Below, one piece after another: positions 4,287 to 59,553 of a stretch of 64,000 bases of DNA. The DNA lies in the NCBI GenBank assembly GCA_016185525.1, contig JACPNK010000002.1, positions 11,616-75,615 on the forward strand, written 5' to 3'. This DNA comes from Candidatus Yanofskybacteria bacterium (lineage in GTDB: Bacteria > Patescibacteriota > Minisyncoccia > 2-02-FULL-40-12 > IGHO2-12-FULL-4). Position 1 is the first letter of the stretch, and each line of letters starts with the position of its first letter. The position numbers were made by a program, and so were the translations under genes. A model generated the notes under the pieces. It saw only the letters and a list, made by a program, of their open reading frames with translations. It was not told where the DNA came from and searched no databases.

Positions 4287-4352
4287 AGCTAAACGTACCA
4301 AAGAAGCGGTGTTCGCCAAGTTTAGCTGTCCACCTAAATTTTAAAAACAAAT

Positions 4353-4376
4353 TTAAAAAACCCCGAAAGGGGTTCA
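4353..4376. terminator. bidirectional intrinsic terminator
   Basis: Hairpin ccccgaaagggg flanked by A-runs and T-runs between convergent genes. Confidence 0.6.
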
Positions 4377-4382
4377 GTATAA

Positions 4383-4673
4383 CTAGTCTCTGGTAGTGTG
4401 GCGTGGTTTTCTTGCTACGACAGCAGCTAGTTCCACATTAGCAGTCTTCAACTTTTTTTCAGTTTCATTAAGTTTTTCAAGAAGTTTTTGTATAAGTTGG
4501 GCTGCTTTTGACAAGACTCCGATTGTTTCTTGTGCATATTTCTGGAGTTCAGGCTTTGTGTTGTTTGTTATAGCCGACAGACTTTTTTGAGTAAGTGCCA
4601 TAACTTCTTGGAGTGCAACCATTAATTCTTTTTCAAATTCTAATTCTGCGTCTTTTGATGTTTGTAAAGACAT
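4383..4673 (-). CDS. small alpha-helical protein (96 aa), cassette 3 of 3
   Basis: Strong SD (aaggagg) and a predicted all-helical sequence. Palindrome site 1 lies about 95 nt upstream. Confidence 0.5.
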   Translation of the reverse strand: MSLQTSKDAELEFEKELMVALQEVMALTQKSLSAITNNTKPELQKYAQETIGVLSKAAQLIQKLLEKLNETEKKLKTANVELAAVVARKPRHTTRD

Positions 4674-4765
4674 TTTCTCCTCCTTTTTTTAAAGAGCTCC
4701 AAGATAAGGGAGCTACAAGCTAATATACATAATAGGCTGGTTGTGTCAACAGGTGGGTAACCGTC

Positions 4766-4792
4766 AGTCATCAAGGTTGAACCTTGATGACT
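4766..4792. promoter_or_regulatory. 27-bp perfect palindrome agtcatcaaggttgaaccttgatgact (putative operator)
   Basis: Perfect dyad read directly from the sequence. It is related to the dyads at 5237 and 5638. Confidence 0.5.
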
Positions 4793-4803
4793 AGGTCAAT
4801 TTA

Positions 4804-4825
4804 AAAAGCCCTTTTGGGGCTTTTG
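4804..4825 (-). terminator. intrinsic terminator of the 4827..5105 gene
   Basis: aaaagccc-tttt-gggctttt hairpin with a T-run on the - strand. It is near-identical to the terminator at 5276. Confidence 0.6.
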
Positions 4826-4826
4826 T

Positions 4827-5105
4827 TTAGACAAAGGACTGATCGTGTTCGGCCAAGTTTCGTTCAGCCAGAGCCAGCCTTTCTTTGAGTTCGACAGCTT
4901 CTTTTTCCAATTTTTCTTCCCGGTTCAGACTCGCGGACAGAAGCTGGTTATAAACGTCGCAAATTTCCACAAAAGACGAGACAAGTCTTAGAGTGTTAGG
5001 AGAGACAGATGTTTTTCTTTCCATTATTTCAAGAGCACCCTTTAAAAATGCGAGGTTTTTTCGGGCTTTTGCTAATTCCTCCAACGTCTTTTCTCTTTCC
5101 GTCAT
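4827..5105 (-). CDS. small coiled-coil protein, paralog A (about 93 aa)
   Basis: The C-terminus LNREEKLEKEAVELKERLALAERNL is about 70% identical to the 5301..5582 product. The start at 5105 was chosen by homology and because the same aggaaag SD precedes both paralogs. The track ORF extends to 5174. Confidence 0.55.
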   Translation of the reverse strand: MTEREKTLEELAKARKNLAFLKGALEIMERKTSVSPNTLRLVSSFVEICDVYNQLLSASLNREEKLEKEAVELKERLALAERNLAEHDQSFV

Positions 5106-5236
5106 TTTCTTTCCTAAAAAGATTGAGATTTCAAGAACTTGTCGTAGTTTACTATTTTTTATTTTTTGTGTCAAATTCTGAACCTGGACAATTCATTTGA
5201 CTTTATTCCATTTAATACAACCATCAAGGTCCAAAC

Positions 5237-5261
5237 ACCATCAAGGTTAAACCTTGATGGT
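5237..5261. promoter_or_regulatory. 25-bp perfect palindrome accatcaaggttaaaccttgatggt plus an extra half-site at 5221-5232
   Basis: Read directly from the sequence. It lies 60-130 nt upstream of the 4827..5105 gene. Confidence 0.5.
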
Positions 5262-5275
5262 CGTTGACAGATTTT

Positions 5276-5298
5276 AAAAGCCCTTTTAGGGCTTTTGT
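5276..5298 (-). terminator. intrinsic terminator of the 5301..5582 gene
   Basis: aaaagccc-tttta-gggctttt hairpin followed by a T-run. Confidence 0.6.
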
Positions 5299-5300
5299 TT

Positions 5301-5582
5301 TTAACTCCAACTTGGAGAACGACTCAAGTCTTGCTCAGCTTGGGCCAGCTTTTCTTTGAGTTCGGCTACTTCTTTCTCTAACTTTTCTTCCCGGTCGAGG
5401 CTTTCTGACCAGTATGTTGAAAGTAAATCATTTAAGTTTAAGAAAGCGTCGGTAATCGCAAGTATCTCTGGATGATTTCCTAACAAAGCTGGAATAGATA
5501 TTCTGGCATTGAGACTATGAATCTTAGATTTGCTTAATTCTTGTTTTGACTTTTCTCTCGGTGTAAGTTCTTTTTCTTTCAC
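5301..5582 (-). CDS. small coiled-coil protein, paralog B (93 aa, GTG start)
   Basis: LDREEKLEKEVAELKEKLAQAEQDL. An SD gaggaaag lies 5 nt before the GTG. Confidence 0.55.
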   Translation of the reverse strand: MKEKELTPREKSKQELSKSKIHSLNARISIPALLGNHPEILAITDAFLNLNDLLSTYWSESLDREEKLEKEVAELKEKLAQAEQDLSRSPSWS

Positions 5583-5637
5583 TATTCTTTCCTCTTTTCA
5601 ACCAACTAGAGTCATCTTATATTAATAAGTTTGTTTT

Positions 5638-5662
5638 GTCAAGGGGATAGAACACCCTTGAT
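5638..5662. promoter_or_regulatory. dyad gtcaaggggatagaacacccttgat in the divergent promoter region between the small-protein array and secD
   Basis: Shares the TCAAGG...CCTTGA arms with the palindromes at 4766 and 5237. Confidence 0.35.
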
Positions 5663-5691
5663 TTTTTAAAGATTGCTGTTACTGTTTCTTT

Positions 5692-7056
5692 ATGTCTCAA
5701 AGTTACGGGAAGAAATCTCTTATTATATTTCTTATTTCTCTTTTTCTCTTTTTTCTGGTCTATCCGGCCAGTTTTAATTTAAGCGCCGATTTTTTAAACT
5801 CAAAACTCAAGCTTGAAAAAGCCGGTTTCAGTATTCCCCACTTTTTCAATATCCCTTTTCGTCTCGGCTTGGATCTTCTGGGCGGTACCCATTTGGTTTA
5901 CAAGGCCGATGTTTCAAACTTGGTTGCCGGCCAAAGCTCCGCTGATGCAATGGAGGGAGTCAGAGATGTTATTGAAAGAAGGGTCAATATTTTTGGCGTG
6001 GCTGAACCGTTGGTTCAGGTTGAAGGAGAGGACAGACTGGTTGTAGAGTTGGCCGGAATCAAGGACATTTCAGAGGCAATTCGTTTGATAGGCGAGACTC
6101 CATTTTTGCAGTTTAAAGAAGAGCGTCCGGAGGCGGAGACGAACGCCATTTTAGAAGCTCAAAAAAAAGGCGATAAGCTGGATCAGGATCCTTACTTTAT
6201 TGATACTTCTTTAACCGGTAAATATCTTAACGGCGCCAGAGTTGTTTTTGGCGGAGGCGCAAGCCAGCTTTCGGGAGCGGAAGTTTCTTTGGAGCTGAAT
6301 GAAGAAGGCGGAAAGATTTTTAAAGAATTGACTGAAAAGAATTTAAATAAAAGATTGGCAATCTATTTGGACGGTGTGCCAATTAGCGCTCCGACCGTGC
6401 AATCTGTGATTCCTGACGGCAAAGCCGTTATCAGCGGCAATTTTAACATCAGTGAAGCCAAAGAACTAGTGACTCGTTTAAATGCCGGCGCTTTGCCGGT
6501 GCCGGTGTCTCTAATCTCACAGCAAAGCGTGGGCGCTTCTCTGGGCCGGGAATCTTTGGTCAAGAGCTTGAAAGCCGGAATTATAGGATTAATCTTGGTA
6601 GCTGTATTCATGGTTTTGTTTTACCGTTTGCCGGGTTTGGTTTCAGTCGCCGCCTTGCTGGTTTATGCGATTTTTGTTCTGACTTTCTACAAGTTGATAC
6701 CGGTTACTTTAACTTTGGCCGGTATTGCCGGTTTTATATTGTCTTTGGGTATGGCCGTTGACGCTAACGTTTTGATCTTTGCCCGAACGAGAGAGGAGTT
6801 AAGACAAGGAAAGTCTCTGAACTCTTCTTTCAGCGAGGGCTTTAGAAGGGCATGGCTTTCAATCAGGGATAGCCACGTAACTACGCTGATTGGCGCGATT
6901 ATTTTATATTTATTTACTACGTCTATAGTCAAGGGTTTTGCTTTGACTTTGGGTATTGGCGTGGCAATGAGTCTTTTTTCCGCAATCTTTGTGACGAAAT
7001 CTTTTTTGGCTCTTTTAATCGGTCCGTGGCTGGAAGGTAAAAAGTGGTTACTGTAA
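5692..7056 (+). CDS. secD: protein translocase subunit SecD
   Basis: Domain order and a C-terminal 6-TM block typical of SecD. It sits immediately upstream of secF. Confidence 0.85.
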   Translation: MSQSYGKKSLIIFLISLFLFFLVYPASFNLSADFLNSKLKLEKAGFSIPHFFNIPFRLGLDLLGGTHLVYKADVSNLVAGQSSADAMEGVRDVIERRVNIFGVAEPLVQVEGEDRLVVELAGIKDISEAIRLIGETPFLQFKEERPEAETNAILEAQKKGDKLDQDPYFIDTSLTGKYLNGARVVFGGGASQLSGAEVSLELNEEGGKIFKELTEKNLNKRLAIYLDGVPISAPTVQSVIPDGKAVISGNFNISEAKELVTRLNAGALPVPVSLISQQSVGASLGRESLVKSLKAGIIGLILVAVFMVLFYRLPGLVSVAALLVYAIFVLTFYKLIPVTLTLAGIAGFILSLGMAVDANVLIFARTREELRQGKSLNSSFSEGFRRAWLSIRDSHVTTLIGAIILYLFTTSIVKGFALTLGIGVAMSLFSAIFVTKSFLALLIGPWLEGKKWLL

Positions 7057-7062
7057 TTTTTT

Positions 7063-7947
7063 ATGAAACCTATTTATAAAATAATGTTTTTTGTTTCTAT
7101 ATCGCTGGTCGTTTTGGCTGTGGCGGCGACGGTGATTTTCGGTTTAAACTTTAGCGCCGATTTTAAAGGCGGGACTTTAATGGAAGTCCAATTTATCGGA
7201 CCCGAGGCGCCTGGCATTTCGGAGCTCCAGGACTTTGTGAAAAAAAGCCCCGAAACCAGTGACGCGGTGATAAGTCCTTCCGGCGCAGACTCTTTCATTT
7301 TTAGGCTGAAAGAAATTGACGAGGAAGTTCACCAAAAAATTGTAGAAAATCTCAAATTAAAATTCACAAACTTGGAGGAAAAAAGATTTGACTCTGTCGG
7401 CGCGGTGGTGGGCAAGGAACTTAAAAGCAGAAGCATTACGGCGATTGTTTTGGTTTTGATTTTTATCGTTCTTTATATTGCTTTTGTTTTCAGAAAACTT
7501 TACAGCACCCTTTCTTCTTTTACTATGGGCGTGGCTGCAATTGTTGCTCTTCTGCACGATGTATTAATTCCTATGGGGGTGTTCGCTTTGCTGGGTAAGT
7601 ACTATGGTGTTGAGATCACGGCCGTGTTTGTTGCTGCCGTTTTAACCATATTAGGCTATTCGGTTTCCGATACGGTGGTAGTTTTTGACAGAATCAGGGA
7701 GAATGTCATGCGTTTTGGAGGCAAGAGTAATTTTGGCCAGCTTGTTCACGATAGTATTTTGCAGACCCTGACTCGCTCTTTAAATACCACCGTTACGACG
7801 CTTTTGTCGCTTGTGGCCATTTATTTTTTTGGCGGCGAATCAATTAAATATTTTTCCCTGGCTTTGATAATAGGCATATTTTTAGGAGCATATTCTTCAA
7901 TTTTTGTTGCTTCGCCGATAGTGGTTTGGTGGTCAAAAAAAAGCTGA
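7063..7947 (+). CDS. secF: protein translocase subunit SecF
   Basis: 6-TM SecF-like sequence adjacent to secD. Confidence 0.85.
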   Translation: MKPIYKIMFFVSISLVVLAVAATVIFGLNFSADFKGGTLMEVQFIGPEAPGISELQDFVKKSPETSDAVISPSGADSFIFRLKEIDEEVHQKIVENLKLKFTNLEEKRFDSVGAVVGKELKSRSITAIVLVLIFIVLYIAFVFRKLYSTLSSFTMGVAAIVALLHDVLIPMGVFALLGKYYGVEITAVFVAAVLTILGYSVSDTVVVFDRIRENVMRFGGKSNFGQLVHDSILQTLTRSLNTTVTTLLSLVAIYFFGGESIKYFSLALIIGIFLGAYSSIFVASPIVVWWSKKS

Positions 7948-14407: not shown

Positions 14408-14480
14408 GCGCATTTTAATTTGCTAAAGTCGTTTTTTTGTAATAAAATAGGTTTTAATTAGGTAGACTATCAAATACTGT

Positions 14481-14718
14481 CGGTCTTCCAAATATTGCTT
14501 TTTCCGGACGCTCGTCCCGCTCCAGCGGCGGGACTCGCTCTTTGTGAGATGTGGATTCTGTCCAGCTTAAGAAAGCTGTCCAGACCACGCCATTGAACTT
14601 ACAGCTTATCCGTCCCTATCGGTCCGAATGGGCTGTAAGATTCAATGGCTAGCAACCTGCCTGTCGGCAGACAGGTCCACAACTCACAGAGCCTACAAAA
14701 GCAATATTTGGAAGACCG
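14481..14718. mobile_element. MITE-like element with perfect 22-bp terminal inverted repeats (cggtcttccaaatattgcttttt / aaaagcaatatttggaagaccg)
   Basis: The TIRs can be read directly from the sequence. The 195-nt interior is hairpin-rich and GC-rich and has no ORF. A 25-nt fragment of the same end recurs at 25455-25479. Confidence 0.45.
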
Positions 14719-14780
14719 TAAACTAACAATCCGCCCGTAGCCCTGCCTGCCGGCAGGCAGGTCAGTTGGCGAAGATTAGT

Positions 14781-15017
14781 ATGTTTTTTGTGTACGTTCT
14801 TAAAAGTGAAAAAGATGGCAATCTTTACATTGGTATGACCAACGACTTGAAACGTAGATTGAATGAGCATAATTGTGGCAGAAACTTGTCTACAAAATAC
14901 AGAAGACCATTTAGGTTAATATACAGTGAAAAATTAAACGACAGGGTCAAGGCTAGATATAGAGAAAAGTTTTTAAAGTCTGGCACTGGAAGAGAGTGGA
15001 TTAAAAATAACTTATAA
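14781..15017 (+). CDS. GIY-YIG nuclease domain protein (YhbQ-like, 78 aa)
   Basis: FVYVLKSEKDGNLYIGMTNDLKRRLNEHN is a GIY-YIG motif. The ATG at 14781 is preferred over the TTG at 14766 in the track. Confidence 0.7.
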   Translation: MFFVYVLKSEKDGNLYIGMTNDLKRRLNEHNCGRNLSTKYRRPFRLIYSEKLNDRVKARYREKFLKSGTGREWIKNNL

Positions 15018-15030
15018 CAATTATAACCAT

Positions 15031-15105
15031 CCGCCCGTAGCTCAGCTGGTAGAGCAACTCCCTTTTAAGGAGATGGTCGTTGGTTCGACTCCAACCGGGC
15101 GGACA
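15031..15105 (+). tRNA. tRNA-Lys (anticodon TTT), CCA not encoded
   Basis: Cloverleaf folded by hand. Acceptor ccgcccg/cgggcgg, D-stem gctc/gagc, anticodon loop cTTTTaa, T-arm gttgg-ttcgact-ccaac, discriminator A. Confidence 0.8.
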
Positions 15106-15168
15106 ATATTTAAAAGTGTTGATAAGCCGTTTGGACTTTTGGCCGGAAAGAAATAAAATGAGGTTACT

Positions 15169-46148: not shown

Positions 46149-46149
46149 A

Positions 46150-46186
46150 AAAGCCGTAAGCGGTGACTGCTTACGGACGGGAAAAA
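46150..46186. terminator. bidirectional intrinsic terminator
   Basis: ccgtaagc-ggtgact-gcttacgg hairpin flanked by A/T runs. Confidence 0.6.
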
Positions 46187-46192
46187 ACTGTC

Positions 46193-46399
46193 TTATTTAC
46201 CCAGTTCTTCAAAATTTACCCAGTAGCCAGAGATTACTGAACTGGGATATTGTTTGGCTATTGTTATTGCGGTTACTTTCAAGAAAGGATGTTCTTTCTT
46301 AAATTTTGCGAGAACTTTTCCGAAGTAATGTTCATCAACAATTTCAACAGTGAAGAAATACACGTTTGAACCAAAATTTGTCGGTTCAACGTATTCCAC
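46193..46399 (-). CDS. hypothetical small protein (68 aa)
   Basis: ORF only. Confidence 0.3.
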   Translation of the reverse strand: MEYVEPTNFGSNVYFFTVEIVDEHYFGKVLAKFKKEHPFLKVTAITIAKQYPSSVISGYWVNFEELGK

Positions 46400-46578
46400 C
46401 GTTTTTTTGACTGATTACGGTACTGGTACTGGCGACCAGGCTAACCAGATCAACGAGAAGAGCGAAATACTTACGGCCAGACACAGCAGGAACTCTAAAA
46501 GACCTATTCCTTTTTCTTTCATTTAACTCTCTTTTTATTTCAATTTACTAAAAACCATTATAATTCATTAAAAATCTT

Positions 46579-46839
46579 TTGTCAACAAGGACCAAATTTC
46601 AGGAGAAAATATATAAAGTCGTTTCTAAAATTCCAAAAGGGGAGACCTTAACATACAAACAAGTTGCGGAATTAGCCGGACACCCAAAAGCTTATCGAGC
46701 AGTCGGTAACATTTTAAATAAAAACCCGGATTTAGAAAAAATCCCTTGCCATAGAGTTGTTCGTTCTGACGGCAAAACGGGTGGCTATATACTAGGAGAA
46801 AAGAAAAAGTTAGAATTATTAAGAGGAGAATTGTTATAG
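46579..46839 (+). CDS. standalone MGMT/Ogt C-terminal domain protein (86 aa) with PCHRV active-site motif
   Basis: IPCHRVV and a helix-turn-helix-like VSKIPKGETLTYKQVAELAG. TTG start. No N-terminal Ogt domain. Confidence 0.5.
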   Translation: MSTRTKFQEKIYKVVSKIPKGETLTYKQVAELAGHPKAYRAVGNILNKNPDLEKIPCHRVVRSDGKTGGYILGEKKKLELLRGELL

Positions 46840-46911
46840 GTTGTAAGTTATAAGTTTTAAGCAAGAAATTACAAAAGAAAGTTATTACTTATAACCTGTA
46901 ACTTATAACTT

Positions 46912-55171: not shown

Positions 55172-56413
55172 ATGCGTTTATCACAATTATTCACCCGCAC
55201 CGAAAAAGAGGCGCCAAAAGATGAGGCAAGCGTAAATGCTCAACTTTTGGAAAGAGCCGGTTTTGTTTACAAAAATAATTCTGGAATTTACACCTATCTG
55301 CCTTTGGGTTGGCGGGTGATAAATAAAATCACGGCGATTATAAGAGAAGAAATGAACGCGATCGGCGGACAGGAGATGTTTATGCCGGCTTTAGTAGACA
55401 AAAGGTATATGGACTCCACTGGCCGCTGGGATGTGGAGGTGGCTTTTGAAGCCAAGGGCAAAAAAGAAAACGAAGCAAGGTTTACTCTCGGCTGGACTCA
55501 CGAGGAGGTTATCACAGAAATTGCCTCTAAGTATATCAGCTCATACAAAGACTTGCCGTTCTCTTCTTATCAGATACAAACTAAATTCCGCAACGAGCCC
55601 CGAGCGAAATCCGGCCTTTTACGGGGCAGAGAATTTTTAATGAAAGACTTGTATAGTTTTCATGCCTCGGAAGAAGATTTTTTGAGATATTACGAAAAAG
55701 TCCGCGGCGCTTATCACAAAATTTTTGAAAGATGCGGCTTGAAATCTTTCTACACTTTAGCGGCAGGCGGAGACTTTACGGCAAGCAATACTCATGAGTT
55801 TCAGGTTTTGGCGCCGGTGGGTGAGGATACTATTTTTATCTGCTCTAAATGCGAGTATGCCGAAAATAAAGAGATTTCTTCTCTAGCTAACGGTGGTTTG
55901 TGCTTAAAATGCGGCGGCAAAGTCAGGGAAGAAAAGTCCGTTGAAGTCGGCAACATTTTTCCTTTAGGCACTAAATACACCGAAGCTTTAAATTTACAAT
56001 TTACGGATGAACGGGGGAATAAAGAATTTGTGGTCATGGGTTCATATGGCATTGGTCTGGGCAGACTGATGGGAACTGTTGCCGAAATTTATCATGACAA
56101 AAACGGATTAATCTGGCCGGAGTCAATTGCGCCTTATAAATTTATTTTAATAACTCTAGACCACACCAAAGAAGAAGGGGATAAGTTATATCAAAAACTT
56201 TTGGAACAAGGGGCTGAAGTTTTATACGACGACAGAGAAGACAAAACCGCTGGCGAGAAATTTGCCGATGCCGATTTGCTGGGCATACCGATCAGGCTTG
56301 TAATTAGCCCCAAAACGTTAAAAGAAAAAAGCGTAGAGATGAAGATGAGAGGAAAAAAGGTGACAGAATTAACCAAACTCAAAGAAGTTGAAGAAAAACT
56401 GGACTTAAGCTAG
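55172..56413 (+). CDS. proS: proline--tRNA ligase (short archaeal-type)
   Basis: Class II motifs, a Zn-binding C-terminal CSKCEYAEN...CLKCGG cluster and an anticodon-binding domain. Confidence 0.8.
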   Translation: MRLSQLFTRTEKEAPKDEASVNAQLLERAGFVYKNNSGIYTYLPLGWRVINKITAIIREEMNAIGGQEMFMPALVDKRYMDSTGRWDVEVAFEAKGKKENEARFTLGWTHEEVITEIASKYISSYKDLPFSSYQIQTKFRNEPRAKSGLLRGREFLMKDLYSFHASEEDFLRYYEKVRGAYHKIFERCGLKSFYTLAAGGDFTASNTHEFQVLAPVGEDTIFICSKCEYAENKEISSLANGGLCLKCGGKVREEKSVEVGNIFPLGTKYTEALNLQFTDERGNKEFVVMGSYGIGLGRLMGTVAEIYHDKNGLIWPESIAPYKFILITLDHTKEEGDKLYQKLLEQGAEVLYDDREDKTAGEKFADADLLGIPIRLVISPKTLKEKSVEMKMRGKKVTELTKLKEVEEKLDLS

Positions 56414-57642
56414 TTACCAATTGGGCTATTGACACCATGGCATCAAGTTTGCTATACTGATAAAGCTCACCCAAAGAAGGGTGAGGGGCCAAAGGAGGGG
56501 CCCTGAAAACAAAAAACCCTCTCAACATAACCAACCACTCTTGTTGAAAAACAACGGAGGTGAGATTATGACTTGAAACCAAGCGCTTAGGCGCACGGTC
56601 TAAAAACCGCGGAACTTATAGTACCCAGGCGGGGAGCTGGTAAAATAAGGCTAAAAACCAGCTCCCACCCATTAAATAGTCCCGCTCTTTTGTTCTTTAT
56701 ATATTTTATTTAAAGAGCGGGGCTGCTTAATGGGTAATCCAAGGTTTACCCTTGGAAACATATCCTTGGAAACGCTTGACAGGGGTAGGGCGGTTGTGAT
56801 ATACTTAGAGTATAAGGTTGAAAACTAGTAAAAAGCCTTGCAAAATACTACTTTCTTTATGTAGAAATATGTAAAGGAAGTCGGATTTTGCGAGACTGAA
56901 GAATGTGGGAGAGCCACAAGGCAAGGGCCAACCAGCCTAATAAATCTCCCAAAAAAACTTAAGTCTCGCTCGATTTTCTGTCTCCAGCACAGTACTAGGG
57001 AGACAGAAACTGTGATGCGGCACAGTACCAAGACGGAGAGTAGCCGCTTCTACTCTCCACAGTTATAGCGAGGACCTGCTGAAGCTCGAAGTAGAACTTC
57101 CCTTGTGGGTGGTTCCGGGCGGGTTGAAGTTTCAAAACCCCAGCAGGTTCCTCGTTACTTTTAAAAAATAACGGCTCTGAAAAATAGCTTAAAAGATCTC
57201 ACTTATTAAAATTTTCTAGACAATCTGTCTAAGACTGAATTACTGATTTTTGAGGCTATTTTGCGGAGCTGGCGTCCCGCTCCCGATGTTGCGCGCCTTC
57301 TTGGCAAGCAGTACCAGACGCAGTACCAGACCAGAAGGACATGAATAGAAGTACAACATCGGGGGTAACGAAGAAGCACCAAACCCCAGGGATGCCCGCT
57401 CCGCTCGCTCTTTATATTTATTTTTTATTGCTACTAGCTATAGCTATTTTCTATTGCTAGTCCCTACACCGAATGGTGTAGGGCTTCGCAAGATATTTCT
57501 ATCGGAAATCAGAAATGGTGGAAGATGGAAGTATCTTGCGGAGGAGCAACAACCATCAGCAAGGGGTGCGGGGGAGCCATTAAGGAGGCGACCCCTCATA
57601 CCCTTGCCTCTTCCGCAGTTTAGTAAAGCTGTTTGTTTCACC

Positions 57643-57706
57643 GAGTGGGCTGGCTTGTAAGTTGTATTGCAAGCAAAGATGCTGTGCCAGCCCACTCACC
57701 TTTTTT
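57643..57706 (+). terminator. strong intrinsic terminator (12-bp GC-rich stem gagtgggctggc/gccagcccactc plus TTTTTT)
   Basis: Read directly from the sequence. Confidence 0.65.
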
Positions 57707-57982
57707 AAAATAAAGTCTTTCAGAAATAGTTCACAAAAATTTGCGAGTTATTTCTGTGAGACTGGTAATCGTCTAAAGGATAGGGCACCTCTTTCTGACT
57801 GAGCGGTCTTTGGGGGAAAAACCTGTTCGATTCAGGTAGCCAGTCTCACACTTCGCAAAATGTTTCTAAGTTATTGGAAATATTTTGCGGAGTGGGACGG
57901 CGACGTACTACAGGCGAAGGCGCATCACCCAAGGCCCTGTCGTAAGCAAACGCCTCCCCGCTCCGCAGTTAGTATTATTACG

Positions 57983-58018
57983 GCCCTATTGGAAACCCCG
58001 ATAGGGCTTTTTTCTTTT
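57983..58018 (+). terminator. intrinsic terminator (gccctat-tggaaaccccg-atagggc plus TTTTTT)
   Basis: Read directly from the sequence. Confidence 0.65.
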
Positions 58019-58060
58019 GCATAATTTCGGGATTTTGTTTAGAGTAACAAAAAAGCCCAA

Positions 58061-58447
58061 ATGACAAATGAACAAATGACAAATCAAATCCAAAGCTCAA
58101 ATGTCAAAAAATACGATTTGGAAGAAAGAACAGCAGTTTTGGGGCAAAACATAATCGATTTTGTAAGAACTTTATCTAAAAACTCAATTACTAATCCGCT
58201 TATTAGTCAAGTAGTTAGAGCTGGAACAAGCATCGGAGCAAACTACATGGAAGCAGACGCATCCGAATCAAAAAAAGATTTTCTACACAAAATTGGTATC
58301 TGCAAAAAAGAAAGCAAAGAAACGATGCACTGGCTAAGGATGATAGCGCATGCTATGCCTGAAAAACAAAACCAATGCAGGCAACTGTGGAAAGAAGCGC
58401 ATGAACTTTTATTGATATTTTCCAGTATTGCTAAAAGAAAGTATTAG
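58061..58447 (+). CDS. four-helix-bundle protein (23S rRNA intervening-sequence-type, TIGR02436-like)
   Basis: VVRAGTSIGANYMEADASESKKDFLHKIGICKKESKETMHWLRM matches the family signature. The gene is bracketed by imperfect inverted repeats rich in aatgacaaatga (58043-58075 and 58449-58496). Confidence 0.7.
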   Translation: MTNEQMTNQIQSSNVKKYDLEERTAVLGQNIIDFVRTLSKNSITNPLISQVVRAGTSIGANYMEADASESKKDFLHKIGICKKESKETMHWLRMIAHAMPEKQNQCRQLWKEAHELLLIFSSIAKRKY

Positions 58448-58503
58448 TTTGGATTTTGACATTGATTTGTCATTTGGATTTTGTCATTTGTCATTAAAAT
58501 TTT

Positions 58504-59553
58504 ATGTTAAACAAACTCTTCGGATTTTTCTCAAAAGACATTGGCATAGACTTGGGTACGGCTAATACCTTAGTTTATGTGCGGGGCAAGGGCATAGTTA
58601 TTAATGAGCCGTCAATTGTAGCCATAAACAACAAAACCGGGACAATTTTAGAAATTGGCCAGGAGGCCAGAAAAATGGTTGGCCGGACACCGGGTTACAT
58701 TGTGGTTGCCAGGCCTTTGGTTGCCGGTGTGGTTTCCGATTTTGAAGTAACCGAGCAGATGCTCAAATATTTTATTGACAAAGTTCATCAGGAAAGTTTC
58801 TCTCTTTTGCCACGGCCCAGAGTGGTGATCGGCGTGCCCTCCGGAGTGACTGAAGTTGAAAAAAGGGCGGTGGAAGACGCGGCTTACAATGCCGGCGCCA
58901 GAGAAGTTTATTTAATTGAAGAACCGATGGCGGCGGCAATCGGCGCCAGACTGCCGGTGCAGGAAGCGGCGGCCAATGTGATTATTGACATCGGCGGCGG
59001 CTCTACGGAAGTTGCCGTTATTTCTATGGGGGGCGTGGTTGCTTCCCGTTCTTTACGCATCGCCGGCAATAAATTTAACGAGGATATAATCCGCTATCTG
59101 CGCGAGGAGAGAAACATGCTGATAGGCGAGGCGACTGCCGAAAATATAAAAATTCGTTTAGGTTCGGCCTACCCTTTGGACGAGGAGTTGAGCGGAGAAA
59201 TCAGAGGCCGGGATTTGGTCAGCGGTTTGCCTCGTGAGATTGTCATTACTTCCGAAGAAATACGCAAAGCAATTTCACGGTCTGTCAAAAGCATTTTAAC
59301 TGACATCAAGGCTACCATAGAAGAAACTCCGCCGGAATTAATCGCTGACTTGTTGAGTCGAAATGTTTACCTTTCGGGCGGAGGCAGTCTTTTGCGGGGC
59401 ATGGATGAGATAGTTTCTCACGAAATTAAACTGCCGGTCAAAGTTGTTGATGACCCGCTGACTTCTGTCGCCAGAGGCTGTGGTTTTGTTTTGGAGAACA
59501 TAGATAAACTCAAAGAAGTTTTAGTGGAAACCTCTAAAGAGGCTTATCTATAA
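58504..59553 (+). CDS. mreB: rod shape-determining protein MreB
   Basis: Actin-fold motifs (IGIDLGTANT, DIGGGSTEVAV). Confidence 0.9.
   Translation: MLNKLFGFFSKDIGIDLGTANTLVYVRGKGIVINEPSIVAINNKTGTILEIGQEARKMVGRTPGYIVVARPLVAGVVSDFEVTEQMLKYFIDKVHQESFSLLPRPRVVIGVPSGVTEVEKRAVEDAAYNAGAREVYLIEEPMAAAIGARLPVQEAAANVIIDIGGGSTEVAVISMGGVVASRSLRIAGNKFNEDIIRYLREERNMLIGEATAENIKIRLGSAYPLDEELSGEIRGRDLVSGLPREIVITSEEIRKAISRSVKSILTDIKATIEETPPELIADLLSRNVYLSGGGSLLRGMDEIVSHEIKLPVKVVDDPLTSVARGCGFVLENIDKLKEVLVETSKEAYL

Follow-up and report, generated by a model that had tools for sequence, protein, structure and literature searches.

Long structured non-coding RNAs (ncRNAs) of the GOLLD (RF01998), ROOL (RF03087), OLE, HEARO and raiA families are driven by promoters and have variable regions beside conserved ones, with tRNA-like sequence among their features, and GOLLD and ROOL often adjoin tRNAs. 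To our knowledge, the regulatory and structural RNAs of Patescibacteria are almost wholly unexplored. Here we analysed a DNA stretch of 64 kb from a Candidatus Yanofskybacteria bacterium (contig JACPNK010000002.1), hereafter the window, and in it the locus at 56414-58060, between proS and mreB, which was compared with homologous or related proS-mreB contigs (numbered with an L, e.g. L016). The locus resembles the above families in being long, structured and non-coding, with promoter sequences, variable beside conserved regions and a tRNA-like sequence, and differs from them in that it gives no covariance-model match, has no conserved multi-helix core, contains dispensable modules and is confined to one species-level clade. 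It is clade-specific, non-coding and highly structured, it carries conserved promoter and terminator matches on the + strand, and its helices are kept by compensatory change. We consider it probable, by a modest measure, that this is a lineage-specific, independently transcribed ncRNA locus that entered the proS-mreB junction in a single narrow clade of Patescibacteria, and our best guess for its product is a stable, processed, multi-hairpin RNA.

The sponges of the CsrB/RsmZ type and the LhrC1-5 arrays have, like this locus, repeated stem-loops, a strong promoter, an intrinsic terminator and a strain-variable number of units, but here no repeated loop motif such as GGA was identified, and the AT-rich hairpins and stem bases are conserved while the interiors are hypervariable. 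With an rRNA operon the locus shares tandem strong promoters, stem-closed insertions that evolve by slippage or replacement, a tRNA(-like) element in mid-transcript, two terminators and an adjoining cassette for a PF05635 "23S rRNA intervening sequence protein"; unlike such an operon, it has no detectable rRNA sequence, is clade-specific and measures only 1.6 kb. The locus matches no described RNA family, and structured bacterial ncRNAs bounded by a promoter and a terminator are already known as a kind.

The 1647 nt from the proS stop codon (56413) to the next gene (58061) form the largest gene-free gap of the window, the next largest gaps being of 763, 761 and 540 nt. The longest open reading frames (ORFs) within 56414-58060 code for 83, 68, 68 and 67 aa, and the eight longest ORFs of both strands gave no Pfam match at E<=0.01. 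None of the ORFs is conserved in the homologous loci, because the indels found there are not multiples of three. An earlier note, made from the letters of the sequence, had described a 1.6-kb stretch devoid of plausible ORFs, and these results bear it out; of a degraded protein-coding remnant, which the same note had named among the outcomes that would speak against an RNA, no ORF relics were detectable in the Pfam searches. The same data bear on the idea that small proteins or a type I toxin-antitoxin cluster were missed by standard ORF calling. There is a strong Shine-Dalgarno sequence at 56556, and type I toxin-antitoxin loci are hairpin-rich, lineage-specific and often duplicated; however, the sole ORF behind a good Shine-Dalgarno sequence has two codons, and the longer ones are neither conserved nor assigned to a family, so that we give this idea hardly any credit. 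The GC content of the region is 0.452 compared to 0.409 for the window, and only 0.24% of equal-sized windows are this GC-rich. The excess sits in the hairpin modules (0.54-0.66), whereas the linker blocks between them are AT-rich (0.30-0.39) and the neighbouring mreB is at 0.474; the description of the stretch as visibly richer in GC than its surroundings is therefore true for the modules only.

Sigma-70 promoters were searched on both strands of the window (128 kb) as TTGACA, a spacer of 16-18 nt and TATAAT, ideally with a TG extension. Seven sites matched at 11/12 or better, and two of them lie within the region, both on the + strand: P1 (56429-56458, TTGACA-18-TGcTATACT) and P2 (56776-56805, TTGACA-18-TGaTATACT), each 11/12 with an extended -10, which by sequence match gives both the features of a sigma-70 promoter. 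The -35 element of P1 and its TGCTATAMT motif are retained in L083, L084, L087 and L094, and the CTTGAC...TTGTGATATACTTA sequence of P2 is invariant in 8/8 homologues. The earlier note, in which P1 and P2 did not figure, had seen AT-rich promoter-like stretches before each terminator; these are poor promoter matches, and the best candidates, P1 and P2, lie further upstream. The two intrinsic terminators that it had placed on the + strand are both present, each predicted from a G+C-rich stem-loop followed by a T-run. Terminator 1 (57643-57706) has a 12-bp perfect stem (57643-57697) with a 31-nt loop, then TTTTTT, and was missed by the terminator scan only because of the loop-size limit of the scan. 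It is paralogous to the stems by which the modules described below are closed, and in L093 the same stem is nested inside a module; its identity is 94% to L094 and about 30% to L016 and L097. Terminator 2 (57982-58018), an 11-bp stem (57982-58008) followed by the T-run TTTTTTCTTTT, forms the 3' end of the locus, and its hairpin is kept in L094, L097 and L098 via compensatory C-G to U-A changes. The folding energy of the unit behind P2 is -491.4 kcal/mol for the + strand and -433.9 kcal/mol for the - strand, i.e. 57 better on the +, with 2 A-C 1x1 mismatches on the + strand vs 7 on the - strand. This asymmetry, together with the compensatory changes, supports an RNA that would be transcribed from the + strand, on which all features given below lie unless stated.

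Folding of 56812-57710 yielded -361.7 kcal/mol, compared to -257.5 +/- 8.4 for shuffled sequences (z = -12.35), while a proS coding control of equal length gave z = -0.22. Every helix listed in the earlier note, which had called the region saturated with hairpins, is present. The predicted structure is a string of local hairpins, and no long-range helix was found in the predicted fold. In alignment A6, which holds the orthologous and paralogous linker hairpins, 99.1% of the cells are paired vs 44-60% in slid controls, with four pairs showing double changes and many U-A to U-G changes; the covariation score of 0.308, to be compared with 0.170 for the shuffles and reached by 0/500 of them, was obtained on about eight distinct, closely related sequences, with a shuffle control that ignores phylogeny. 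In addition, the closing-helix extensions of three modules, M0, M1 and Mt, differ in sequence between strains and retain their pairing. The conservation in related genomes for which the earlier note had called was thus found, and with it the compensatory changes.

The unit behind P1, named U1 (56465-56740, about 275 nt), is also structured, with a folding z of -7.4 for 56465-56745. It starts with two variable 5' hairpins (56466-56485 and 56486-56504), a pair that exists in two unrelated versions among the strains. A perfect Shine-Dalgarno sequence, GGAGGTGA, follows at 56556-56563 and, after an N4 spacer, the mini-ORF ATG-ACT-TGA at 56568-56576; neither was described in the earlier note. Downstream of the mini-ORF are the hairpins a (56583-56594), b (56596-56609), c (56632-56667) and d (56667-56735). 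In alignment A4 of the 3' half of U1, 96.8% of the cells are paired (slid controls: 30-47%), and compensatory change is seen at 6 pairs, a number reached by 1/500 shuffles. A minigene was defined as a Shine-Dalgarno sequence 5-9 nt before the start, one sense codon and a stop, and the window sequence has all of these. A Shine-Dalgarno sequence, a start, 0-1 sense codon and a stop are conserved in 7/8 homologues, in L083 as GTG-TGA, which lacks a sense codon. At the second codon the sequences differ (ACT, GGT, CTT, TAT, CTC, CTG), and TGA, TAA and TAG all occur at the stop position across the homologues; we infer that the mini-ORF may be translated. Two-codon minigenes, in which a strong Shine-Dalgarno sequence precedes AUG, a single sense codon and a stop, are described in the LEE1 leader of enterohaemorrhagic E. 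coli (EHEC) (PMC3262186) and as mg2 of axe-txe, ATG-ACT-TAA (PMC8708949), but in the present case a structured RNA is found downstream and no protein-coding cistron. In these two mRNA leaders, translation of the minigene raises the expression of the adjacent downstream gene (PMC3262186, PMC8708949), and the axe-txe authors suggest that the effect may stem from protection of the mRNA against endonuclease (PMC8708949). A boxA-like antiterminator was also considered, from CTTTAACAA in U1 of L094 and L089 and from GCTCTTTA at 57405; both were seen by eye and are inconsistent across strains, so we treat it as a weak lead. In L094 and L089, whose U1 is of type II, the look-alike of the boxA of rRNA operons, C(G/A)C(T/C)TTTAACAAAAAA by eye, is located after a hairpin, and GCTCTTTA, which by eye also resembles boxA, is at 57405-57412, just past module M1.

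In the unit behind P2, hairpin modules follow one another as a chain, made from a single short repeat whose orientation alternates (CTTCGCAAAAT / ATTTTGCGGAG). Three parts can be named, X (CTTCGCAAAAT-like), Y (ATTTTGCGGAG) and Z (CTCCGCA): X-loop-Y forms AT-rich linker hairpins, and Y-(GC-rich interior)-Z forms the modules. The earlier note had pointed out three paralogous modules closed by the same stem; they exist, and belong to a larger set of at least five, since five Y:Z modules, M0, M1, M2, Mt and M3, could be delimited. The chain begins with block A (56834-56897), a linker hairpin of the X:Y type whose 3' arm runs into the 5' strand of M0. Block A is 84-90% identical in L016, L083, L084 and L089, and shows by eye a compensatory change, CTTTCTTTA/TAAAGGAAG vs TTATCTTTA/TAAAGGTAA. 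Module M0 (56890-56969) is closed by GCGAGACTG...CAGTCTCGC around a variable interior, and the extension of its closing helix covaries among strains (CTGAAG/CTTAAG, CTGGT/ACCAG, CTGGG/CCCAG). Three optional hairpins, e (56978-57006), f (57035-57058) and g (57068-57155), follow and are all found in the window; L094 and L097 retain e and f only, f with the T-run behind it resembling there a terminator, and the whole stretch (56978-57155) is missing in L083, L084 and L089 and is shorter and poorly alignable in L016. Block B (57173-57270) is an AT-rich hairpin of 99 nt whose arms measure 25 nt (57174-57198 / 57245-57269) and enclose an inner hairpin (57208-57222). All homologues share it at 86-92% identity, with invariant runs of 29 and 40 nt, its fold is identical in five strains at about -30 kcal/mol, and its inner stem covaries (TAGAC/GTCTA vs CGGAC/GTTCG). 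Module M1 (57263-57404), GCGGAGCTGGCGTCCC...GGGATGCCCGCTCCGC and then a T-rich tract, carries the tandem duplication GCAGTACCAGAC x2; its interior is 100% identical to that of L083 and 31-57% to the others, and the extension of its closing helix exists as five alleles which differ in sequence and keep the pairing.

Block C1 (57405-57484) comprises a T-rich tract, the palindrome TAGCTATAGCTA, direct repeats of TATTGCTA and a hairpin at 57461-57484. It is 76-100% identical in L016, L083, L084 and L097, and in L016 and L084 the stem of its hairpin has a different but complementary sequence. This hairpin, CCCTACACC-(loop)-GGTGTAGGG, matches the opposite strand of 1095-1118 (21/22 nt, E = 0.001), a terminator-like hairpin between two convergent genes; the likeness may come from a shared element or from chance. 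An X:Y linker hairpin (57484-57543, CTTCGCAAGATATTTCTATC / GATGGAAGTATCTTGCGGAG) precedes module M2 (57538-57616, GCGGAGGAGC...CCTCTTCCGC), whose interior is 33-42% identical to the homologues and whose flanks are 82-98% identical. A second one (57714-57763), 80-82% identical to L084 and L094, precedes the tRNA-like module Mt (57755-57850), and a third (57846-57897), with compensatory changes in alignments A5 and A6, precedes module M3 (57886-57967, TGCGGAGTGGGACGGCG...CGCCTCCCCGCTCCGCA). The tip of M3 varies by short tandem repeats, GACACC x1 in L097 vs x3 in L098 and CAAGACCC x2 in L016, and the 3' end of M3 is 100% identical to L016 and 51-70% to the others.

Units of alternating orientation are also the mark of the enterobacterial clusters of repetitive extragenic palindromes (REP) and bacterial interspersed mosaic elements (BIME), which like this chain are palindromic and intergenic, with conserved linker motifs and a variable number of units. 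REP families are dispersed in hundreds of copies. Here, in contrast, the repeat is restricted to a single locus and has its own promoters: no REP/BIME family and no family of miniature inverted-repeat transposable elements was found, the X/Y repeat being clustered at this locus only in the window plus about 1.05 Mb of related loci. An element acting at the level of DNA, in which the alternating inverted repeats would be recombinase sites or hairpin sites of single-strand DNA (shufflon-, BIME- or attC-like) that generate hypervariability, would account for repeats of alternating orientation flanking variable segments, for module alleles that are mosaic between strains and for contigs of several assemblies that break exactly at module boundaries, and G-T tolerance also fits folded single-strand DNA. 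We hold it to be improbable, since no segment is inverted in any homologue, the repeat is confined to this locus in about 1 Mb of sequence, no recombinase or integrase lies nearby, and strong promoters and terminators on one strand suit RNA better. A shufflon or inversion system was in fact rejected as such, every homologous BLAST match being co-linear and the neighbouring genes including no recombinase. The locus is not a CRISPR array either, since its repeats alternate in orientation with irregular spacings, and the CRISPR-DR match of L016 is noise (19.9 bits vs a cut-off of 41 bits). A diversity-generating retroelement (DGR), considered on account of the PF05635/Avd-like neighbour, was dropped as a candidate on what the region and its flanking genes show: no direct repeat pair of the 100-nt class, as expected for a template and a variable repeat, was found in the region and no reverse transcriptase among the flanking genes examined, and most homologous loci lack the PF05635 gene.

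Comparison between strains showed two contrasting patterns. At four-fold degenerate sites, the identity to L016 is 66% for proS, 77% for mreB and 53% for mreC; the linker blocks, at 86-98% and with block C2 at 72-98% across strains, are more conserved than these sites, which argues for purifying selection on the blocks. The GC-rich module interiors, on the other hand, are replaced, duplicated or deleted among strains in a mosaic pattern; that of M0, for instance, is 89% identical to L094 and 30-52% to L016, L084, L089 and L097. Whole modules are also present or absent according to the strain, L093 having one module after block B and L097 lacking the tRNA-like one. Three contigs from three assemblies (L082, L090 and L091) stop exactly at the M1 boundary, 57268-57270, which suggests that several alleles coexist in populations. 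Taken as sequence patterns, these data fit purifying selection that would act on the linker hairpins and stem bases, tips resembling expansion segments and recombination at the conserved blocks.

A non-functional remnant would be an explanation of another sort: the ghost of a decaying mobile element or of a tRNA/rRNA-type operon, evolving neutrally, with hairpins that arose through local inverted duplication. The insertion is clade-specific in an otherwise tight proS-mreB junction and has a pseudo-tRNA inside, presence/absence and mosaic variation with slippage repeats are seen, and many helices are perfect and look young, all of which a remnant would explain. Yet the linker blocks exceed the four-fold-site conservation of the neighbouring essential genes, both promoters and terminator 2 are retained, helices are kept intact by compensatory and U-A/U-G changes, no ORF relics are detectable, and nothing similar was found in the phage and plasmid collections by BLASTN or in viral contigs by pattern scans; we judge a remnant to be unlikely. 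The same variation could also be the product of selection for diversity, namely a hypervariable RNA array in which the hairpin chain takes one of two exclusive registers (X:Y or Y:Z) and the interiors are allelic "specificity cassettes", diversified by recombination under selection of a conflict type, e.g. as decoys or guides in the phage or host interactions of an episymbiotic bacterium of the candidate phyla radiation (CPR). To this proposal we attach a small probability; a search of the literature on structured or hypervariable RNAs of the CPR gave no lead.

The families of GOLLD, ROOL, HEARO, OLE, raiA, RNase P, transfer-messenger RNA (tmRNA), signal recognition particle (SRP) RNA and 6S RNA (Rfam 15), the search of Rfam being the check that the earlier note had proposed, were not matched in the 64 kb of the window at the gathering score, nor in the region at E<=10, in L016 (E<=5) or in seven further homologous loci (E<=1). 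Permissive Rfam searches of the window and 8 homologous loci returned only noise, e.g. miRNA and trpB-motif hairpins. The failure to recognise RNase P, tmRNA, SRP or 6S signatures by eye is thus confirmed with covariance models, and a relocated essential RNA of one of these four kinds was rejected, given that no model matches and that a clade-specific insertion is not expected of such genes.

In the tRNA-like module Mt, a closing stem of 11 bp, TGTGAGACTGG/CCAGTCTCACA, encloses a degenerate interior that resembles a tRNA, and the stem covaries (CTGG/CCAG vs TAAGG/CCTTA). The hairpin resembling a T-arm that had been noticed earlier is present, at 57821-57837, that is 2 nt away from the coordinates first given. 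In L016 and L094 the interior is better preserved than in the window and comprises a D-arm, a variable anticodon-like arm and a T-arm, with 7 nt rather than 2 between the acceptor-like stem and the D-arm. Mt of L016 scores 23.1 bits (E = 0.07) with the tRNA model RF00005, whose gathering score is 29 bits; the same model finds nothing in 56300-58150 of the window at E<=10, and ARAGORN, run on the window and 61 loci, predicted no tRNA or tmRNA in the region. No conserved anticodon loop of 7 nt with U33 was found: L016 has CAUCGAU, with A in place of U33, L094 has a triloop, and in the window the loop cannot be recognised. Alignment with tRNA-Gly, tRNA-Arg and tRNA-Lys of Patescibacteria showed the layout of a tRNA and no clear parent. 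The T-arm alone survives in the window, the interior of L084 is unrelated and not tRNA-like, and that of L097 is deleted. The tRNA-like insert is therefore an optional interior, and neither a tRNA gene nor a core feature of the locus. The tRNA-like domain of tmRNA, the bacterial Y RNA YrlA and SpF41 of Streptococcus (RF02435) have in common with Mt a T-arm (GTTCGAnTC) and a GG D-arm within a longer closing stem, and an unconserved anticodon arm, but Mt stays below the tRNA and SpF41 thresholds, has the longer segment before the D-arm and is absent in some strains.

These results also weigh on the view that the locus codes for one large RNA as ornate as GOLLD, ROOL or OLE, which would take up a single tertiary fold overall and have the modules as peripheral helices. 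A transcript of more than 1 kb with extreme structure, the alternation of conserved segments with variable helices in the manner of expansion segments, and the embedded tRNA-like element all speak in its favour. On the opposite side stand the lack of any Rfam match in the window and 8 homologues, the purely local folding, the loss of whole modules and linker blocks in L093, L097, L083, L084 and L089, and the splitting of the region by an internal promoter and internal terminators; we regard this view as improbable. From the earlier proposal of a large or composite ncRNA, the composite part holds, for a non-coding, structured and conserved locus, and the single large RNA with a global fold is not supported.

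The flanking genes code for RRF, an M50 protease, ProRS, a PF05635 four-helix-bundle protein, MreB and MreC. In about 70 other Patescibacteria loci mreB starts only 20-100 nt after proS, and because this junction is so tight the 1.6-kb block can be regarded as an insertion. The block is restricted to loci with a ProRS at least 87% identical, about ten contigs, always at the proS-mreB locus (L016, the Yanofskybacteria metagenome-assembled genome that is the closest named relative, L083, L084, which is the same as L095, L087, L088-L092, L096, L093, L094, L097 and L098); it is absent from L085 and L086, whose ProRS is 77% identical. A metagenome-wide scan for one invariant 22-mer returned six contigs, all in the proS-mreB context. 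The carriers form one narrow group of groundwater Patescibacteria, a distribution at species level. In the close relative L083 (ProRS 90% identical), proS and the RNA locus are separated by a gene for a ClpB-like AAA+ protein (5290-7119), which runs on the other strand, so that upon rearrangement of the junction the locus stays with the mreB side.

This position raises the question of a long leader of the mreBCD operon, in which transcription from P1/P2 would run through serial attenuators (X:Y vs Y:Z, antiterminator/terminator) into mreB. The locus has the same orientation as mreB, alternative pairings of three segments are found beside T-runs after M1 and M3, and the mini-ORF resembles a leader peptide. 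However, a separate gene cassette flanked by inverted repeats lies between terminator 2 and mreB in the window and L093, a different cassette of 160 nt occupies that slot in L016 and L097, mreB has its own promoter-like site near its start codon (58481-58508), and the approximately 70 related genomes manage with the short gap; such a leader is, in our opinion, very unlikely.

The first of these cassettes (58052-58482) is bounded by inverted repeats of 21-29 nt built of TGACAAATG-type units and contains the PF05635 "23S rRNA intervening-sequence protein" gene (58061-58447). Apart from the window, L093 alone has it (about 896-1258 of the reverse strand), with 61% aa identity. The 160-nt element, flanked by a 28-nt inverted repeat, is present in the slot between terminator 2 and the mreB promoter in L016, L097 and L098, and the slot is empty in L084 and L094; cassettes closed by a stem seem to insert preferentially at this slot. 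The mreB start codon is about 4-7 nt past a -10-like hexamer (TAAAATTTTATG at 58481-58508 of the window, TATGTTATAGCCGTG in L094 and L084), which suggests that the mreB mRNA may be leaderless or nearly so in this clade. In the rest of the window, RNAs similar to that of the locus were looked for in the other large gaps and rejected, since small protein genes (46149-46911 and 4287-4826) or a tRNA-Lys gene (14408-15168) are found there. On the - strand of 4287-5691, three small genes can be seen by eye in tandem, each coding for about 90 aa and thus too short for the 100-aa ORF filter; two of them or more are clearly paralogous, with the common motif ...NREEKLEKEAVELKE(R/K)LA.AE..., and each has its own near-consensus promoter (one at 4749) and a terminator hairpin. 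The only 12/12 consensus promoter of the window is at 46585 on the - strand, in the gap 46149-46911, with a small ORF downstream from about 46521, whose N-terminus is hydrophobic and signal- or transmembrane-like, and a strong terminator at about 46160.

If the locus is, as we favour, an independently transcribed ncRNA locus, P1 would drive U1 and P2 an untranslated hairpin-chain RNA of 0.9-1.2 kb, both from the + strand, and the latter would end at terminator 1 or 2 or, depending on the strain, already at leaky terminators upstream of these. The 5' stem-loops would cap U1, and the loading of ribosomes at the Shine-Dalgarno sequence and mini-ORF may serve as a 5' stabiliser of the RNA. The conserved linker hairpins and stem bases could be the functional parts, as binding sites for protein or RNA or as processing sites, and the acceptor-stem-like bases of the modules, preceded by U (U, then G), together with the long helices, might lead to processing of the RNase P or RNase III type into stable stem-loop RNAs. 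The module interiors would behave like expansion segments, one of them being a tRNA-like fossil. Since Y has two possible pairing partners, X and Z, two alternative folds could be open to each module, which might switch from one to the other. Several points weigh against this reading as a whole. The promoters and terminators are consensus matches, and the ideas of processing, of a stabiliser and of two states come from the sequence. The covariation statistics are weak because the sequences are so few and so closely related, U1 taken alone has no strand preference in folding energy, and the dispensability of modules, the mosaicism and the slippage are equally expected of decaying or selfish sequence. 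Moreover, the 64 kb of context yields no target, partner protein or phenotype that could be proposed.

The narrow distribution limits both the general importance of the locus and the statistical power to prove its structure. It is unusual in combining hairpins chained by a repeat of alternating orientation with hypervariability of a cassette-like kind, a minigene that is conserved on an ncRNA, and a tRNA-like fossil. Since the genomes of Patescibacteria are tiny and tightly packed, and since the region has two of the best promoter matches, a protein-free insert of 1.6 kb is unlikely to be idle. For study, the locus would offer a family of RNA that Rfam does not contain, a natural case of a conserved two-codon minigene carried by an ncRNA, and repeats arranged such that every module may adopt two folds, an architecture that evolves through exchange in the manner of cassettes.

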